A stretch of 63,400 bases of DNA, filler included, from Anaerolineae bacterium (GTDB lineage: Bacteria > Chloroflexota > Anaerolineae > Epilineales > Epilineaceae), in the NCBI GenBank assembly GCA_029262755.1. It is 9 parts of 9 records of this genome, joined end to end, with 100 filler letters (N's around TTAATTAATTAA, not from the genome) between each part and the next. Parts side by side here need not be neighbours in the genome. Positions count along the whole stretch, not along the records: positions 44,944 to 47,996 come from JAJCYU010000213.1; 8 more parts are not named here. One strand, written 5' to 3'. Made by a program: the position numbers and the translations under genes. Under the pieces are notes generated by a model that saw only the letters and a program-made list of their open reading frames with translations, had not been told where the DNA came from and ran no database searches. This document shows positions 37,555 through 47,996 of this stretch, one piece after another (within the stretch, counting starts at the first letter, position 1; each line of letters starts with the position of its first letter).

Positions 37555-38586
37555 ATGACGCAGCCCGTACGCCCGCACGCTTGCCCGCCGGAGCTGTTTC
37601 GCGACCGCGCAGCCGATCCGTCCGAGGCCGTGGCTCCCGCCCGCGACCGTAGCGCCCACTCCTTGCGCACCGGTTCTCTAGGCTACTTCTTCTTTGCGAT
37701 GTTCGTCGCCCTCCTCGTGTTCGCGTCCAGCGCGCGCGACGGCGCGCTCGGCATCGGAACGATTTCGGTGGGGCATGCGCAGTCTGCGCCCGCCCAGGAA
37801 CCCGCCGCGCGCATCCTGCTGCCGATGACCTTGGCCAACCAATCGCTCGCCGCGCTGCCGGACGTATCGACGGCCCCGCCGCGCACCGCCACGTCCGCGC
37901 CACCGCCCACGAACGTGCCGCGGCCGTCGCCCGTGCCGAGTGAACCGCCGCCCGCCACCCCGACCGAAGCCCCGCCGCCCACCCTCGTCCCGACCGAGCC
38001 GCCAACCGCTCCCCCGACGGCGACGGCCACCGCGACGCCCGAGGCCAGCCCGACGCCGGCCTTGGCATGCGAGAACATCGTCAAGAACGGCGACTTCGAA
38101 TCCGGGGCGCGCGATTGGACGCTTGTTGTCACCACCCAAGAACAGCCGCTCAACCTGGCTATCGTGCGGCGTGCCGAGGGCCCGATCCCACCGCAGGAAG
38201 GCGACATCTACGCCTACCTCGGCGGTCTCAACGACACGAGCTTCTGGCTGACATCCCGCCGCCTCCCCCGCTTCGACACCGAAGGCATCGAGCGTGCGAC
38301 GCTCAGCGTCTGGGCGGCGTTGATCTCGGAAGAACAGCCCGACCGCCGCCCCGGGGACCGTTTGCGCGCCTTCGTCGACACGGGACGACGGACGTACATC
38401 GACGAGCTGACGCGTAGCGAGGAAGACCTGCAGCCCCAACGCACGTGGCAACAACTGACGGCCGATGTCACGCCCTACTTGGACCGCGGCGCGAACTACG
38501 TGGGGGTGGAGGTCATCAACGATCGCGGTCGCAACTCCTGGTTCTATCTCGACGACGTCCGCCTGGAGCTCTGCAGGCTGCCGTGA
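37555..38586 (+). CDS. Secreted protein with Pro/Thr linker and C-terminal carbohydrate-binding-like jelly-roll domain
   Basis: GGAGG RBS; TM; ILLPMT motif; PT linker; CENIVKNGDFESG..W...FYLDDVRLELC. Confidence 0.75.
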   Translation: MTQPVRPHACPPELFRDRAADPSEAVAPARDRSAHSLRTGSLGYFFFAMFVALLVFASSARDGALGIGTISVGHAQSAPAQEPAARILLPMTLANQSLAALPDVSTAPPRTATSAPPPTNVPRPSPVPSEPPPATPTEAPPPTLVPTEPPTAPPTATATATPEASPTPALACENIVKNGDFESGARDWTLVVTTQEQPLNLAIVRRAEGPIPPQEGDIYAYLGGLNDTSFWLTSRRLPRFDTEGIERATLSVWAALISEEQPDRRPGDRLRAFVDTGRRTYIDELTRSEEDLQPQRTWQQLTADVTPYLDRGANYVGVEVINDRGRNSWFYLDDVRLELCRLP

Positions 38587-38819
38587 TCGTGCTTCCCTCC
38601 GCTTGTCCGGTGGTGCAACCGCTTCGCCTTCGACCCGTGCCGCACGCCGCGGCGCGGCGGGAACCGGTGGCGCCGAGCCGGTCCCCCGTCCACGGCCCTC
38701 CTCCCCTCGGGCCGTGGACGGGGGACCGCACACGGGCCATGGCGCGATCCGTGGTCCAAGCGGGACCCGATGGCGTGCGCCCTGGAACCCGCGCCCGTCC
38801 GATGCTACCGTCGCGGACC

Positions 38820-41800
38820 ATGCCACCGACCGAGGTCGCACCCGCGCCGCACGAGGATTCGCCGCACGACGGGCGCGCCGACGCCCCACGCGCCGCGAAT
38901 GTGCCACGCGCAGCCGACGCCCCACGCGCCGCCGACGCGCCCTTGCTCGCGACGCGCCTCTCGCCGCCGCCGACGCGCGAGGACGCCGTCGCGCGGCCCG
39001 CGCTTGTCGCGCGCCTTGCGGAAGCCGCCGCTCGCGGCGTGCTCGTGCTGTCCGCGCCGGCGGGGGCCGGTAAGACGACGCTGCTCTCGGCCTGGGCCGA
39101 AACGGAGGAGCATCCGGTGGCCTGGCTATCGATGGCGGCGGCCGACGCGGATCCCGCCCGCCTGCTGGCCTACATCGTGGCCGCCCTGCGACGCGCCACG
39201 GACGAGCCGGTCCTCGGCTCCGAGGCTCTAGCCGCCATGGCTGCACGAAGGCAGTCCCCCCCGCGCGCGGAGTACGAAGGTGCGGAGCAAGCGCCCGAGC
39301 CGACCCGCGGCGCCGTGGTGCTGCTCATCAACGAGCTGGAGCGGCGCGATCGGCCGATTCGCCTCGTGCTCGACGACCACCATCTGCTCGACGGCGCCGA
39401 GGCGTGGGCGCTCCTGCGACGACTCATCGAGCGCAGGCCTGCGTCCTTGTCGGTGATCCTATCCGGGCGCAGCGACCCGCCGCTGCCCCTGGCCAAGCTC
39501 CGCCTGGCAGGCGGCCTCGCGGAACTGCGCGCCGATGCTCTGCGCTTCGACGACACCGAGGCCATGGCCCTCTTCGCCGCCGCGGGACTACAGCCCGAGG
39601 GCGGCGCGGTGCGCGATCTCGTCGCCCGTACGGACGGCTGGGCCGCCGGATTGCAGGCCGCGTCTCTCGCGCTGCGCCAACGACGCGCGGGCGAAGATCC
39701 CGCCGCGCTGCTGGCCGGCTTTCGCGGCAGCCACCCCTTCGTTCTCGACTATCTCGTGGACGAGGTGTTCGACCGGCAGCCCGCGCAGATCCGCACATTT
39801 CTCCTGGCCACGTGCATCTTGGACCGCTTGAGCGCGCCCCTGTGCGCCGCGCTGCTCGCGGCCCCGGACGTCGGCGTAGCCTTTCACGACGCACCGGGCG
39901 AGGAAGGCCGTGCGCACGAGAACGCACCGCACGGGAACGCACCGCACGAGCACGAACCCGAAAATCTCGAACCGCACGGCATTGAATCTCACGATGTAGC
40001 ACCGCGTGATGTAGCACCCCACGATGTCGAATCCCGCGACGTCGCACCCCACGACGTCGCACCGCACGACATCGCCACCGCCGCCTCGATGTTGCACCGT
40101 TTGGAACGCGACAACCTGTTCCTGCTCGCCCTCGACAGCGAGCGATCGTGGTACCGCTACCATGCCCTCTTCGCCGACCTGCTCCGCCATCGGCTTCGGC
40201 GCAGCGATCCGGACGCGCCCGCGCGCCTCCATCGAAGGGCGATGGCCTGGTACGACGCGTGCGGCGACGCCGCGGCCGCGGTGGAGCATGCGCTGGCTGC
40301 GCGGGATCGCGAGGCAGCGGCGTCGCGGATCGAGGCCGCGGCCACCCACCTCGCGTTGTTGACCGAATCGCGCACACTGCGCCGATGGCTGGAGGACTTG
40401 CCGCCCGAATGGCTGCCCGCTCGCCCGCGCCTTGCGCTGGCACGCGCCTGGGTGGCCTTGCAGACCGAGTCCGTCGCGGAGGCCGAGCGCTGGCTGGCTC
40501 GCGCGGACGCGGCGCACCGACCGCCCCACGACGAGCCCGCTGCGCAGTCCGCGCATCCGCGGGCGAGAGACGGCCACTCGGACCAGCGGAGCACGGAGGT
40601 GGAAGGAGCGGGCTCGGTCCGGGCTCCAGAACCGGCACCGGCTCCAGATCCAGATCCAGAACCCGCGGACGTCATCCGCGATCCCGTCGCCGGCGAGATC
40701 GCCGCTCTTCGTGCGCGGATCGCAGGCACCCGGGGCGACGTGGCCGCCACGCTGCGCCTCGGAAGCCGCGCACTACGGCTGCTCGGCGACGACACAAGCA
40801 CGTTGGCGCTGCGCATCGTCGTCGGCAACGCGCGGGCGGCGGCGCTGAGCATGGCGGGCGAAATCGGCCGATCGGCGCAGAGCTACGACGAGGCCGCACG
40901 GGTGGCACGGGGCGCTTCCGACCCCTCCATGGCGGTCGGTACCCTGTGCGTGCTCGCCGAGATCCGTCGCCTCGCGGGCGGCCTGCGCGCTGCAGAGGGC
41001 GCGGCGCGGGAGGCCATCGAGCGGGCCTACGTTCCGGGGGGCCGTGCGCTGCCGGCGGCGGGTCGCGCGCACCTCGTGCTGGCTGCGATCGCGCGCGAGC
41101 ACGGCGATGCCGCGGAAGCAGCGCGGCAGGCCGATCGGGGGCGCGAGCTGGCGGCGATCGGAGGCAACCGCACGAGCGAGGTGATCGCCTCCTTGCAGCA
41201 GGCGCTCAACCTGGACGCTGGCGGAGCGTCGGACGAGGCCCGTACGCTGCTGCGGACGGCACGCGAAGGGGCCGCCGCCGCGGGGGCGACGCCCGCCATC
41301 CTGCGTAACTTCGCTGTGACCGACGCCTGGTTCCAACGATCGGCCGGTCGCACCGACGCGGTGCGCGCTTGGGCGGATGAGGTGATCGGTCGACGGGACC
41401 GTGAAATCCCGCCCGCAGACGCGTCGCCGGACGCTTCGGATCTCTTGCTCGCACGGCTCGCCATCGACGAGGGACGCCCCGCGGACGCAGAGGCCCTCCT
41501 CTCCCCCTTGAGCGAACAAGCCCTGCGACGCGGTTCGCTCGACCTTTGGCTTCGGGCGCAGGTGGCGCGGGCCGTCGGGGCGATCACCCTCGGCGAGCCC
41601 GAGCGCGCGGCCGATCTCCTGGCCCCCGCGATCGAGCACGGTGCGCGCGAGGGCTACCACGCCTCGTTCACGCGCGAGGGCGGGACGCTGACACCCGTCC
41701 TCCGGATCCTCGCCGCACGTGGCGGCCCCACGACGTACTTGGGCAGCTTGCTCGACGCGATCAGCGGCGCGGACGATGCCTCGGACACGCGGAAGGATCC

Positions 41801-42074
41801 GACCGGCCGGCAGGAGGAAGCGGATGAACCACCCTTGGCTGAAGCGCTCTCTCCCCGCGAGCTGGAGGTCCTTCGGCTCGTCGCGGCGGGTCTGTCCAAC
41901 GCAGAGGTGGCGGAGACGCTGACGATCGCGCTTGCCACAGTGAAGCGCCACCTCACCACCGTGTACGCCAAGCTGGCGGTCGACAGCCGCACTCGCGCCG
42001 TGGCCCGCGCACACCGCCTCGGCCTCGTCGACCGGAACGAACGAAACGGAGGGGCACACGGCAGAGCAGGGTGA
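38820..42074 (+). CDS. MalT-like LuxR-family STAND transcriptional regulator
   Basis: Walker A APAGAGKTTLL; LVLDDHH; TDGWAAGL; DYLVDEV; WYRYHALF; C-terminal LSPRELEVL..GLSN..TVKRH HTH. Confidence 0.93.
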   Translation: MPPTEVAPAPHEDSPHDGRADAPRAANVPRAADAPRAADAPLLATRLSPPPTREDAVARPALVARLAEAAARGVLVLSAPAGAGKTTLLSAWAETEEHPVAWLSMAAADADPARLLAYIVAALRRATDEPVLGSEALAAMAARRQSPPRAEYEGAEQAPEPTRGAVVLLINELERRDRPIRLVLDDHHLLDGAEAWALLRRLIERRPASLSVILSGRSDPPLPLAKLRLAGGLAELRADALRFDDTEAMALFAAAGLQPEGGAVRDLVARTDGWAAGLQAASLALRQRRAGEDPAALLAGFRGSHPFVLDYLVDEVFDRQPAQIRTFLLATCILDRLSAPLCAALLAAPDVGVAFHDAPGEEGRAHENAPHGNAPHEHEPENLEPHGIESHDVAPRDVAPHDVESRDVAPHDVAPHDIATAASMLHRLERDNLFLLALDSERSWYRYHALFADLLRHRLRRSDPDAPARLHRRAMAWYDACGDAAAAVEHALAARDREAAASRIEAAATHLALLTESRTLRRWLEDLPPEWLPARPRLALARAWVALQTESVAEAERWLARADAAHRPPHDEPAAQSAHPRARDGHSDQRSTEVEGAGSVRAPEPAPAPDPDPEPADVIRDPVAGEIAALRARIAGTRGDVAATLRLGSRALRLLGDDTSTLALRIVVGNARAAALSMAGEIGRSAQSYDEAARVARGASDPSMAVGTLCVLAEIRRLAGGLRAAEGAAREAIERAYVPGGRALPAAGRAHLVLAAIAREHGDAAEAARQADRGRELAAIGGNRTSEVIASLQQALNLDAGGASDEARTLLRTAREGAAAAGATPAILRNFAVTDAWFQRSAGRTDAVRAWADEVIGRRDREIPPADASPDASDLLLARLAIDEGRPADAEALLSPLSEQALRRGSLDLWLRAQVARAVGAITLGEPERAADLLAPAIEHGAREGYHASFTREGGTLTPVLRILAARGGPTTYLGSLLDAISGADDASDTRKDPTGRQEEADEPPLAEALSPRELEVLRLVAAGLSNAEVAETLTIALATVKRHLTTVYAKLAVDSRTRAVARAHRLGLVDRNERNGGAHGRAG

Positions 42075-42224
42075 CGCGACCACGCCGACATTGTTCGGCG
42101 TTCACCACGCGCCGCATCAAGTGCCGGGCGATCCGGCTCGCGGAGCACGCGCCGAACGGTCGTCGGACAGCATCCGGCCAGATGGGCCCCGAACGATACC
42201 GGGTCACCGTGCGGCACCCGAGTT

Positions 42225-42395
42225 GCCGCACGAAACCGAGTCGCCGCACGACATCGAGTAGCGGCACGACATCGAGTAGCCGCACGACATCGAGTAGCCG
42301 CACGACATCGAGTAGCCGCACGACATCGAGTAGCCGCACGAAACCGAGTCGCCGCACGACATCGAGTAGCCGCACGACACCGAGTCGCCGCACGA
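42225..42395. repeat. 18-bp tandem repeat x9.5
   Basis: GCCGCACGACATCGAGTA / GCCGCACGAAACCGAGTC variants, contiguous, no spacers. Confidence 0.95.
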
Positions 42396-42444
42396 GTCCG
42401 ATCCGTTCGCACCACACCATCCCAGGCCGAGTAGGAGCAGCAAC

Positions 42445-42783
42445 GTGACCACACACGGATCGCAGCACAACGCCCGACATGCCGGCGACGTCCTGCCGGG
42501 TCCCGCGACGAAGGCGTGGAGCTCCCGCTATGCGCCGGTCACATGGCGCATTCGGATTCGCGGGCACATGGGCGCGGACTGGGCGGACTGGTTCGGTGGC
42601 CTCGACCTCGCATGGGACAACGAGCGCGAGCACACGGTTCTGCATGGCCCTCTGCCGGACCAAGCCGCGCTCTACGGCGTGCTGCTACGCGTACGCGATC
42701 TCGGCCTCGAGCTGGTCGCGGTGTCCAGCGAGGCCGCGTTCGCGCCGTCGAGCCGAGACGAGGACGCGACACGGTCGGCCTGA
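42445..42783 (+). CDS. Small conserved hypothetical protein typical downstream of MalT-like regulators
   Basis: AGGAG RBS; WRIRIRGH..DWADWFGGL...TVLHGPLPDQAALYGVL.RVRDLGLELV. Confidence 0.8.
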   Translation: MTTHGSQHNARHAGDVLPGPATKAWSSRYAPVTWRIRIRGHMGADWADWFGGLDLAWDNEREHTVLHGPLPDQAALYGVLLRVRDLGLELVAVSSEAAFAPSSRDEDATRSA

Positions 42784-44843: not shown

Positions 44844-44944
44844 NNNNNNNNNNNNNNNNNNNNNNNNNNNNNNNNNNNNNNNNNNNNTTAATTAATTAAN
44901 NNNNNNNNNNNNNNNNNNNNNNNNNNNNNNNNNNNNNNNNNNNC

Positions 44945-46288
44945 CCGCGTTCGTTCACGGCACGCGACGGAGCGCTGACGTTCACGGCTTCGGGCGATGT
45001 GTTCGAGGTGACGGGTCTGCAGACGGACGACGTGGTGGTGCTGCGGCACCGGCACGGGGACGTGGTGGAGCTGACGGGCGCCGAACTGCGCGCGGGCGAC
45101 GAGGCTGGAACGTTCACGGCGCGCTTCGCGGGCCTGGCGGACGCGGCGACGTACACGGTGGCCGAGCGGAGCACGCTCGCTGCGCCGGCATCGATCGCGG
45201 CGTCGCGACGGGTGACGCAGGCGCAACTGCTCGCGGACGAGGCCGATTACGTGGCGATCGCGCACGGCTCGTTCGTGGACGGACTGGACGAGCTGGTGGC
45301 GGCGCGTGAGGCGGAAGGCCTGCGCGTGAAGGTGGTGGATGTAGCGGATGTGTACGGCGCGTACGGGCACGGGCAGTTCGGCGCGGAGCCGATCCGGGCG
45401 TACGTGGCGGCGGCGCACGAGCAGCTGGGCACGCAGTACGTGCTGCTGGTGGGCGGCGACACCTATGACTACCGCGACCGGTTGGCGCTCGGCTCGATGA
45501 GCTTCGTCCCATCGCCGTACGCGGCGACGGGCGAGTTGATCCGGCACGCGCCGGTGGACCCGCTGTACGGCGACGTGGACGGGGACGGAGCACCGGAGGT
45601 GGCTGTCGGTCGCTTCCCGGTGCGCACGACCGTGGAACTGGCGAACGTGGTAGCGAAGACGCTGGCCTACGGGCGGAAGGACTACGGACGTACGGCCGTG
45701 TTCGCGGCGGATGCGGTGGACCGAGGCGTGAGCTACGCGCAGGAGGCGGAAGGGTTCGCGGCGGAGCTGCCGGGCGATTGGACGGTGGCGCGGGCGTACC
45801 TGGACGAGGAAGGCGGCGTGGCGAGCGCACGGGCGACGTTGCTGCGGTCGATCGAAGAGGGCGTGGCGTTGGTGAGCTACGCGGGCCACTCGCAAGCAGA
45901 CGCGTGGGGCTTCCAGGGCCTGTTCGACGGCGGAGACGCAGCGGCGCTGAACAACGCGGGCCGGCCGACGGTGGTGAGCCAGTGGGGTTGTTGGAACACG
46001 TACCACGTGGCGCCGCGCTACGACACGATGGGGCACCAGCTGCTGCTCTCGGACGACCGAGGCGCCGCCGCGGTGCTCGGCTCGGCGACGTTGTCGCGCT
46101 CGGACGCCAACGTCCGTTTGGGCGAGATCGTGACGCCGCGGCTGACCGAGTCCGGCACGACGCTTGGCGCGGCGGTGGTGTCCGCCAAGCGAGACTTGGC
46201 GGCGACCCATCCAGGCGACCTTGACGTAATCCTCGGCTGGACGCTCTTGGGCGACCCGGCCCTGACGATCGATCGAGAGACCCGCTGA
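44945..46288 (+). CDS. C25 family (gingipain-like) cysteine peptidase, 5' truncated
   Basis: YVLLVGG; D..YGD.DGDG.PEVAVGRFP; catalytic His in SYAGHS and Cys in QWGCWN; C-terminal WTLLGDPAL. Confidence 0.9.
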   Translation, partial: PRSFTARDGALTFTASGDVFEVTGLQTDDVVVLRHRHGDVVELTGAELRAGDEAGTFTARFAGLADAATYTVAERSTLAAPASIAASRRVTQAQLLADEADYVAIAHGSFVDGLDELVAAREAEGLRVKVVDVADVYGAYGHGQFGAEPIRAYVAAAHEQLGTQYVLLVGGDTYDYRDRLALGSMSFVPSPYAATGELIRHAPVDPLYGDVDGDGAPEVAVGRFPVRTTVELANVVAKTLAYGRKDYGRTAVFAADAVDRGVSYAQEAEGFAAELPGDWTVARAYLDEEGGVASARATLLRSIEEGVALVSYAGHSQADAWGFQGLFDGGDAAALNNAGRPTVVSQWGCWNTYHVAPRYDTMGHQLLLSDDRGAAAVLGSATLSRSDANVRLGEIVTPRLTESGTTLGAAVVSAKRDLAATHPGDLDVILGWTLLGDPALTIDRETR

Positions 46289-46431
46289 TGTCCATCCAAC
46301 AATCCGGTGTCGGAACAACGAACGACCACGATCCACAAACACGACGACGCGGCGCCGAGGACGCCGTACGATCCACCATCCAGCGCTCCGCCGTGAGCAT
46401 GGACAAGATGCGAGGGGGAGGTCTACACGGG

Positions 46432-46605
46432 ATGGTGGATCGAGCGGCGTCCTCGGGCCGCAGAGACTACGCCGCACCGAAGCTGCGCAGTCTTGGCGAT
46501 ATCCGCGACGTCACGTTGGGTGGTTCGCCCGGAATGGGCGACACGCAGAATCCGATGACCGAGGGCAACATACCGTTCTACGGAGACTACATCGTCATGC
46601 CCTGA
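46432..46605 (+). CDS. Lasso peptide precursor (57 aa: 29-aa leader, 28-aa core)
   Basis: GGAGG RBS; leader ..YAAPKLRSLGDIRDVTL; core GGSPGMGD-TQNPMTEGNIPFYGDYIVMP; adjacent to cyclase. Alternative start at 46288. Confidence 0.85.
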   Translation: MVDRAASSGRRDYAAPKLRSLGDIRDVTLGGSPGMGDTQNPMTEGNIPFYGDYIVMP

Positions 46606-46767
46606 GCAGTGGCCGCACCTGGATACGTCTAACGTGCGCGGTCTAGAGGGCTATCCTCTCCCCGTGACCGCGCCGCCCTCTCCCTGCAGCCGATCGGTTC
46701 ATCCACGTCTTCGCGACGGGATGGGCCGGTCGGCCCATTGTATGGGCAACGACCGCGGCGACGTCGT

Positions 46768-47996
46768 ATGACCGGTATCGTGGCCATGTTGCCGTGTGGG
46801 GGCTCGCCCGCGACGGAGGTGGAGCTCAGGCCCATGGTGGCTGCGCTAGGACACCTGGGCGCCGGCGATCCGGTGATGCGCTGTGGGGCGGGCGCTGCGG
46901 TGGGCGTCGTACCGTTTCCCGCCGACGATTCCACGCAGCAGGCAGGACCGCCGCTGGCCGCCGACGTGCACGGCACGCTGATCCTGGCCTTCGACGGGCG
47001 CCTGGATGATCGGCCGGGGCTGTGGTCATCGCTGAGCCTGACCGAACGCGAGCGTGCAGGGTCCCTCCTAGCGGAAATCGGTCGCTCCGCAGAGCGAAGG
47101 GCAAACTCGGACGCGGCGCTCGTGCATGCCCTGTGGCGTACGCTTGGCGCCGAAGAGACCCTCCGGAGGCTACGCGGCCCGTTTGCGCTGCTCGCGTTCG
47201 AGCTTCAGGCGCGGCGTGTCGTGTTGGCCCGCGATCCGATGGGAACGCGCGGCTTGTCCTTCGGTGTGCACGCCCATCGATTGGTCGTGGCCAGCGACGC
47301 CTCGGCGGTTGCAGCGGCCGAGGGGGTTGAGGGCCGGTTGGACGAGCGCACCATGGCCCATTTCTTTGCGCTCCGGGTACCGGAGGACGGTGCGACCTTT
47401 TTCCGGGGCGTGCGGGACGTGCGGCCGGGCGAGGTGCTTTCCATGGCGCTCGACAGGACGGTTGATGTGACGTCATTCGCTCCGCTTTGCGTCCTTGATT
47501 CCGTGTCGGGCGGCACGTTCAACGAGCCGCGTTCGCCCCAGGAAGACCATATGCTGCACCAGCTGCTACGAGAGCGGTTGCGCGAGGCTGTGCGCGTGCG
47601 GCTCGCGGGCACGGGTGGCGACGCCGTGGCCGTCGAAGGGCGGCATCCGGAGTTCCGCAGCCGCACGGGGGTCACCCTGAGCGGTGGTTTGGACTCGAGC
47701 GCCGTCGCGGCCCTCGCCGTGGATCTTGTGTGGCCTTCCGCGGTGGAGGCCTTCTCGTACGTGTTCGACGAGCTGGTGTCGGCCGACGAGCGACCGTGGA
47801 TGGACGCCCTCATCGCGCGCCTCGGAATCCAGGCGACGCGCGTACCGGCCGATGGGCTGTGGCCATTGCGTGACCGAACAGATTGGGGTGGGTACAGGGG
47901 GGGACCGGAGCGATCGCCCTACCAGGCGCCTATGGACGCGGTTTATGCGGCGGCGGTGTCGGCTGGCATACCCGTGATGTTGGCCGGGGCGTTCGG
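46768..47996 (+). CDS. Lasso cyclase (asparagine synthetase-like), 3' truncated
   Basis: MTGI instead of MCGI; FDGRLD; SDA.LV; GPFA; LARDPMG; LSGGLDSS; next to lasso precursor. Confidence 0.85.

Follow-up and report, generated by a model that had tools for sequence, protein, structure and literature searches.

A probable class II lasso peptide locus with an unlinked B2-B1-nucleotidyltransferase operon in an uncultured Anaerolineae bacterium

The DNA analysed here (the window, 63,400 bases from a metagenome-assembled genome (MAG) of an uncultured Anaerolineae bacterium) carries what we regard, with a probability of about 80%, as a genuine class II lasso peptide locus. A precursor gene (A) is followed by the gene of an Asn-synthetase-like cyclase (C), and the helper genes, encoding a leader peptidase (B2), a PqqD/RRE protein (B1) and a nucleotidyltransferase, lie unlinked on another contig of the same genome. 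The locus is uncharacterised yet fairly ordinary: its features belong to known lasso biochemistry and nothing departs from it. The window is composed of nine contigs of the MAG, separated by spacers that appear as 16 runs of 44 N in the form N44-TTAATTAATTAA-N44. The source genome (labelled G000 here) has 5.06 Mb in 428 contigs, with a completeness of 84% and a contamination of 0.72%. The precursor and a fragment of the cyclase are located on contig C213 (window 44944-47996, 3,053 bp), and because the window consists of separate contigs split by N spacers, base 47996 is a real contig end. The features that carry the argument are the following, in window coordinates unless a contig is named.

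46432..46518, plus strand: leader peptide, 29 residues, with Tyr(-17), Pro(-14), Leu(-12), Gly(-8) and Thr(-2), the full YxxPxLx3Gx5Tx motif
46519..46605, plus strand: core peptide GGSPGMGDTQNPMTEGNIPFYGDYIVMP, 28 residues without Cys, plus the TGA stop; Gly1 and Asp8
46768..47996, plus strand: lasso cyclase, first 409 residues, ATG at 46768, open to the contig end
C94:9685-10083, minus strand, outside the window: probable C-terminal 133 residues of the cyclase, found by tblastn with the cyclases of relatives, at the right contig end
C279:5160-5543, minus strand: B2 leader peptidase, PF13471 at 71.3 bits and NF033537 (lasso B2) at 83.5 bits, cut-off 33
C279:4795-4995, minus strand: B1, PqqD/RRE, PF05402 at 56.2 bits
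C279:3545-4912, minus strand: NTP_transf_5 nucleotidyltransferase, PF14907 at E=1.5e-41, directly after B1

The precursor open reading frame (ORF) runs on the plus strand from an ATG at 46432 to a TGA at 46603-46605 and encodes 57 amino acids, every letter of which matches the translation given in an earlier description of this DNA as a lasso precursor (the sequence-only reading). NCBIfam model NF033521 (lasso_leader_L3) matches residues 13-32 with 23.2 bits, above its cut-off of 19, and the leader is in this sense already recognised by NCBIfam (PGAP-type) models. When the whole 5.06-Mb genome was searched in six frames with the same model, four matches were obtained at E<=10, among which the precursor alone passed the cut-off; none of 14 control genomes gave a match above it. 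The Pfam scan of the 57-residue precursor returned no domain. In an alignment of nine precursors, Y13, P16, L18, G22, T28, P33 and G34 are invariant in all nine, corresponding to Tyr-17, Pro-14, Leu-12, Gly-8, Thr-2 and the core residues Pro4-Gly5. The numbering of positions -17 to -12 and the assignment of the Gly1-Asp8 ring follow the usage in the available part of PMC10368454. The invariance and the NF033521 match bear out the YxxPxL motif and the Thr at -2 that had been read in the leader.

The Gly1-Asp8 ring and the Cys-free class II core, also proposed earlier, are supported by the leader model, the nine homologues, the 150 best relatives of the precursor and the cyclase tree described below. 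Judging from the core sequence, the macrolactam probably joins Gly1 to Asp8. A profile of the nine aligned precursors was compared with 1.84 billion cluster representatives (50% identity clusters), giving 1,545 matches at E<=1e-3, of which 35 were at E<=1e-10. The cores of the best 150 of these 1,545 representatives were parsed, and the 148 with the strict YxxPxLx3Gx5Tx motif serve as denominator. Gly1 is found in 142 of the 148, position 8 is the sole Asp/Glu within positions 7-9 in 147, and 102 cores start with GGSPG (120 read xxSPG); Pro is the last residue in 61. Two length groups are present, one of 17-23 residues (100/148) and one of at least 25 (48/148, with exactly 28 in eight), the latter including one parsing artefact, a 164-residue 'core' in the multi-repeat protein P0320. 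Since 48 of the 148 cores reach at least 25 residues, a long tail (tails in the family extend to about 46 residues) is normal rather than unusual. P0320 itself has 199 residues and contains four tandem lasso-leader-like units (YEPPxLxxLGxxxxLT followed by an acidic core), a layout that may indicate a multi-core or fused precursor. Within the order, 11 of 35 genomes contained precursor-like ORFs matched by the profile, as did eight of the 16 family genomes other than G000. No characterised member of the GGSPGxGD precursor family was found.

Four metagenomic homologues (P0002-P0005) have the same core as the window except for D23E, V26I and M27V, and their leader N-termini cannot be aligned with the window leader. 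The conservation of the core while the leaders diverge, across the window sequence and these four, points to selection on the core, the pattern expected if it is functional. The closest precursor homologues sit on contigs of 783-3,087 bp. In the subgroup with 28-residue cores, an aromatic pair at 19-21, Asp23, an aromatic residue at 24 and Pro28 recur. The earlier suggestion of plug residues gains in the case of Phe20 and Tyr21 from the recurrence of the aromatic pair in relatives, and these two residues are predicted, rather than observed, to act as plugs. In microcin J25, as in the window core, an 8-residue ring starts with Gly-Gly; it is closed on Glu8, with Phe and Tyr as plugs on either side of it. 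That peptide has 21 residues and a one-residue tail, is matured with a fused B protein and comes from Enterobacteria. A Phe-Tyr-Gly sequence lies about 11-12 residues past the ring both in microcin J25 and in the window core (F20-Y21-G22). Beyond such short motifs the two have no detectable sequence relationship, and the ring acceptor is Asp8 here and Glu8 there.

The gene downstream of the precursor encodes an Asn-synthetase homologue without the N-terminal catalytic Cys, as had been noticed before: its N-terminus reads M-T-G-I where the AsnB of the same genome (contig C384) has M-C-G-I, with Thr replacing the Cys nucleophile. The fragment contains GATase_7, GATase_6 and the start of Asn_synthase, and the PP-loop SGGLDS is intact (residue 305). 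PF00733 occurs in only two places in G000: on C384, where AsnB is complete, and in the C213 fragment. The top NCBIfam model for the fragment is NF033535 (lasso isopeptide cyclase; 103.9 bits, model positions 1-369 of 668), with TIGR01536 (asparagine synthase) at 87.1 bits; with no more than 409 residues on the contig, the NF033535 score does not reach the cut-off of 525 for full-length proteins. The 133-residue piece at the end of C94, whose frame runs in from the contig end and finishes at a stop codon, matches residues 631-724 of the cyclase of relative G002 (E=9e-14) and residues 572-638 of that of relative G014 (E=9e-5), and is probably the C-terminus of the window cyclase gene.

A tree of 28 proteins was built from the window fragment, four precursor-adjacent cyclases, seven other genome matches including AsnB, and the 16 best database homologues. 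A clade of 24 rows (SH-aLRT 100, stem 1.66) holds all five precursor-adjacent cyclases, the window protein among them, with four AsnB-like rows outside it. The Cys is absent in all eight clade members with an aligned N-terminus, and M-C-G-I is present in the three AsnB-like rows shown (3/3). According to the sequence-only reading, the lasso assignment would fall if the extended locus lacked an RRE and B2 and the cyclase grouped with true AsnB or other amidotransferases; B1 and B2 are in the genome, and the cyclase stands apart from AsnB. The nearest row in the tree is a cyclase of G002 on contig C171 (40% identity over aligned columns, 44% in the genome search), beside which no precursor was found. 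Scans with the cyclase across genome contigs (2 loci) and metagenome contigs (11 loci) gave relatives at 28-33% identity only, and a PDB sequence search with the fragment gave no match at E<=1e-3.

Regarding the helper genes, G000 holds one PF13471 match above the cut-off and one PqqD match, and the two are adjacent, mid-contig on the 13.2-kb contig C279. Read along the minus strand, B2 comes first, followed by B1 and NTP_transf_5, and the stop codon of B2 overlaps the start codon of B1 in the sequence ATGA. The neighbours of the operon are a proline dehydrogenase gene at one end and, at the opposite end, a divergent S8 subtilase gene together with ProRS. The best named relatives of this ProRS are from Anaerolineales, Promineifilaceae, Anaerolineae and Chloroflexota MAGs (58-63% identity); if C279 is correctly binned, this would place the host in Chloroflexota, as an Anaerolineae-like organism. 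The composition of C213, C94 and C279 is ordinary for the bin, with tetranucleotide distances at the 36th-46th percentile of similar-sized contigs. The sequence-only reading had placed B1 and B2 just past the contig end. The evidence does not support this: a C25 peptidase gene lies upstream of the precursor, unrelated genes lie downstream on C94, and the sole B2 and PqqD genes are in the middle of C279. Beyond the cyclase C-terminus, C94 encodes an RHH_8 regulator in convergent orientation, a membrane protein resembling YdjM, a gamma-glutamyltranspeptidase (GGT) and a MutS-like protein, and no lasso gene. The B2-B1-nucleotidyltransferase set is a separate operon, and unrelated genes intervene before the A-C pair however the contigs are joined. 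An attempt to extend C213 with one biofilm DNA metagenome run, which may come from the source sample, gave coverage of 46288-47857 only and no loose ends; the depth of the locus in this single run is low (3.5-6.7). A second NTP_transf_5 gene, on C359, has Crp-like, glycosyltransferase, NUDIX and transglutaminase genes as neighbours and was rejected from the pathway.

The C279 operon probably serves the precursor in trans. The B1 protein (RRE) would bind the leader, the B2 cysteine protease would cleave after Thr(-2)-Leu(-1), and the ATP-dependent Asn-synthetase-like cyclase would adenylate the side chain of Asp8 and join it to the amine of Gly1 with the tail threaded. The product would have an 8-residue ring and 20 residues of loop and tail, with a calculated monoisotopic mass after dehydration of 2926.26 Da. 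A predicted complex of the C279 B1 with the precursor gives weak support, with a score of 0.53 against 0.02 for the best control; at least 70% of contacts are shared between runs, and the pLDDT of the partner is at least 51. Of 80 solved complexes, 58 reach the mark used for these predictions, as do two of 110 mismatched pairs; just seven of those 80, together with both passing mismatches, reach it with scores at or under 0.60. As RRE-leader complexes have already been solved, the pass of the B1-precursor pair may reflect likeness to them and not this particular pairing.

The cyclase fragment was compared with 41 genomes (G000 and 40 relatives) and matched 11 of these; G002, G004, G008 and G014 are relatives, the last three from the same bacterial family as G000. 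G014 has a contiguous set of genes for a giant SdrD_B/C25 protein, C, A, an HprK-like kinase (K), PqqD, B2 and NTP_transf_5. In G008 the genes run giant C25, C (read in two frames), A, K, PqqD and nucleotidyltransferase, and the sole B2 of that genome is on another contig, right after an ABC transporter. The G008 cyclase (contig C5, 6899-9105, minus strand) consists of overlapping frames of 531 and 239 residues, both with Asn_synthase matches, an apparent frameshift or assembly error. G004 has two loci: giant C25, C and A, and nothing else, on C98; and, on C76, K, C, A, an ORF that contains PqqD, and an SdrD_B protein. Its sole B2 is on a third contig (C26), near an S8 subtilase gene. Both a B2 gene and a precursor-adjacent cyclase were located in four genomes (G000, G004, G008 and G014), and only in G014 are the two together. 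The giant C25 gene flanks four of the five precursor-adjacent cyclase loci examined and immediately adjoins the cyclase-precursor pair in G014, in G008 and at the C98 locus of G004. As these genomes are all from one family, shared ancestry may explain both the scattering of B2 and the C25 adjacency. The HprK-like kinase adjoins the precursor in G014, G008, the C76 locus of G004 and contig C345 of G002. Among the five precursor-adjacent loci, A precedes C in the window locus alone; in the relatives C comes first. Genes for large S8 subtilases adjoin lasso genes in three genomes, next to the cyclase in G002 (C171) and next to B2 in G004 (C26) and G000 (C279), with a PPC domain in G002 and G004 and a PA domain in G000; this adjacency may be coincidence or shared synteny.

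Several observations weigh against a complete and working pathway as drawn here. The link between the A-C pair and C279 is drawn from co-binning in an 84%-complete MAG and from a weakly predicted binding, and the operon order, B2 then B1, differs from the B1-then-B2 order of G014. About 145 residues (about 440 bp) of the cyclase are unassembled between C213 and C94, and the join of these contigs is proposed from homology and contig-end position. The cyclase has 70 database homologues at E<=1e-20, the best of them 38% identical, and none of the 70 is a close full-length homologue bridging C213 and C94. Its terminal branch in the tree is 1.84 long, so its exact place inside the 24-row clade is unsure. 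In addition, tblastn and hidden Markov model searches with the kinases of relatives found no HprK-like kinase beside any lasso gene in this 84%-complete genome.

It is quite unlikely, in our view, that a dedicated B1/B2 pair exists in DNA missing from the assembly and that the C279 operon serves another, unseen precursor. Such an arrangement would fit a genome that is 84% complete in 428 contigs, with a locus depth of 3.5-6.7, and several sets per genome do occur, as in G004 with its two cyclase-precursor loci and two PqqD genes. However, other genes fill the DNA on either side of the A-C pair, with C25 upstream and RHH_8, YdjM, GGT and MutS-like genes downstream on C94, the assembly has no further lasso-leader match above the cut-off, and the single B2 is likewise unlinked from the cyclase loci in G004 (97% complete) and G008 (95%).

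Alternatively, the peptide could mature without B proteins, the leader being cut by another protease such as the neighbouring C25 protein or a housekeeping enzyme. There are precedents in the available part of PMC6993621, where psmCAD is reported to yield pseudomycoidin in the absence of B1/B2 and a cluster from a cyanobacterium has no B genes, and in that of PMC12070363, where triculamin is made without B genes; a C25 peptidase gene is also beside four of the five precursor-adjacent cyclase loci. We nevertheless consider this highly improbable here: the leader keeps the full RRE/B2 recognition motif, a conservation left unexplained without B1/B2, the genome encodes an intact B2-B1 pair, and the C25 adjacency could be synteny inherited within one family. 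Equally improbable is a decaying remnant in which the A-C pair was stranded by rearrangement and gives no product, a view that the A-then-C order unlike that of relatives, the B genes elsewhere, the absent kinase and the long cyclase branch would suit, but against which stand a cyclase with no stops or frameshifts in 409 + 133 residues and an intact PP-loop, and a core nearly invariant over five sequences with diverged leaders.

The reading of a functional locus with an unlinked helper operon could be extended to a stable split pathway in this Anaerolineae-like family, in which a B2-B1-nucleotidyltransferase module acts in trans on A-C pairs tied to giant C25/SdrD surface proteins, and the GGSPGxGD peptides work with or on those proteases, for instance as inhibitors or regulators. 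We hold this extension to be unlikely; if it were true, the GGSPGxGD family would form a functional clade of its own among lasso peptides.

Lasso peptides form stable scaffolds and show activity as antibiotics and enzyme inhibitors. Among the papers listed by the literature search, judged by title and abstract, none characterises a lasso peptide from Chloroflexi, and the library searched gave no account of the window core or of any Anaerolineae lasso peptide. The locus gives entry to a precursor family of 1,545 clusters whose ring is nearly fixed as GGSPGxGD among the parsed members. Points of some interest are the unlinked B2-B1-nucleotidyltransferase operon, since the scattering recurs in relatives, the giant C25 neighbours and the size of the GGSPGxGD family. 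Cluster miners that demand adjacent B and C genes would miss or truncate such loci. In practical terms, the analysis provides a testable core (2926.26 Da) and an enzyme set composed of the cyclase and the C279 B2-B1 pair, with or without the nucleotidyltransferase.

The Bsf pathway of Bradymonas sediminis comprises BsfA/K/B1/B2/C/N/D, and Ser3 is phosphorylated by BsfK, according to the available part of PMC10368454. As described there, it shares with the system in G000 the YxxPxL motif at -17 to -12, the Gly1-Asp8 ring, the ring Ser3, split B1/B2 and an 'N' nucleotidyltransferase gene. The same text gives Ile(-2) and a core ending in Asp for Bsf, in contrast with Thr(-2) and a terminal Pro here; unlike Bsf, the lasso genes here have no adjoining kinase and are spread over at least two loci (PMC10368454, in part). 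As BsfK acts on Ser3 of a lasso precursor with a Gly1-Asp8 ring (PMC10368454), the conservation of this residue is of note, and by analogy with the Bsf pathway the conserved ring Ser3 may be the tailoring site in this peptide as well. In G000, an HprK-related P-loop protein is encoded on contig C251 (2524-3897) between two GT4 glycosyltransferase genes and gives a 26.5-bit match with the kinases of relatives. Against TIGR04352 it scores 43.5 bits, below the cut-off of 200. For lasso tailoring in G000 it is the sole kinase-like candidate, and a distant one.

In Firmicutes, the paeninodin/pseudomycoidin-type cluster has the order psmC-A-K-B1-B2-N-D, and PsmN attaches a hexose to phosphorylated pseudomycoidin (available parts of PMC6993621 and PMC9266682). 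Relative G014 shows exactly this C-A-K-B1-B2-N arrangement, and the NTP_transf_5 gene of C279 can be likened to psmN by its position after B1 (both comparisons with PMC6993621). As far as these partial sources go, paeninodin and pseudomycoidin are phosphorylated on a C-terminal Ser, with pseudomycoidin also glycosylated, whereas the window core ends in Pro28; the window host is of another phylum and the window core is longer (PMC6993621, PMC9266682). With the core ending in Pro28, the paeninodin-type C-terminal Ser site is therefore absent. Triculamin is made with only A, C and an acetyltransferase, as stated in the accessible part of PMC12070363. The window locus resembles triculamin-type biosynthetic gene clusters, so far as that text describes them, in having a precursor and macrocyclase with B genes absent from the locus; it differs in that the RRE motif is kept in the leader, B1/B2 are elsewhere in the genome and an acetyltransferase is not involved (PMC12070363).

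Three further features surround the precursor gene.

44944..46288, plus strand: 3' part of a large surface-type protein gene, Peptidase_C25 (PorU/gingipain-like), cut at the contig start
46414..46421, plus strand: Shine-Dalgarno-like run GGGGGAGG, containing GGAGG, 10 nt upstream of the precursor ATG
46689..46734, plus strand: long imperfect hairpin between precursor and cyclase, from the RNA fold

The C25 domain is nearly complete (PF01364, E=2e-61, profile positions 1-373 of 374), and the gene product scores 125.7 bits against NF033707 (T9SS sortase PorU), below the cut-off of 420. The GGGGGAGG run probably serves as the ribosome-binding site, and a longer precursor from the in-frame starts at 46288, 46399 or 46408 is possible. 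A scan of 46250-46850 found no sigma-70 promoter, and its terminator-like sites were on the minus strand only, at 46342-46357. The gap between precursor and cyclase is 162 nt. Folding of 46600-46775 as RNA gave a minimum free energy of -81.4 kcal/mol (z = -2.79, with one of 200 shuffles folding equally well); the hairpin is defined by this fold, and the repeat search did not report it, imperfect as it is. No T-run follows the hairpin at 46689-46734. On this folding model it could act as an attenuator or stabilise transcripts, and may tune the ratio of precursor to enzyme transcript.

Elsewhere in the window, contig C219 (55860-58951) has a G+C content of 39-53%, against a bin mean of 66%, and carries genes for a TPR protein and for a fragment resembling pyruvate phosphate dikinase; this contig appears to be mis-binned and to come from another organism. 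An ORF of 1,209 residues at 38445-42074 encodes a LuxR-type (MalT-like) regulator, and it is followed at 42200-42450 by tandem repeats of about 15 nt that translate into RCRAAT and TTSSSR peptide strings in several frames.

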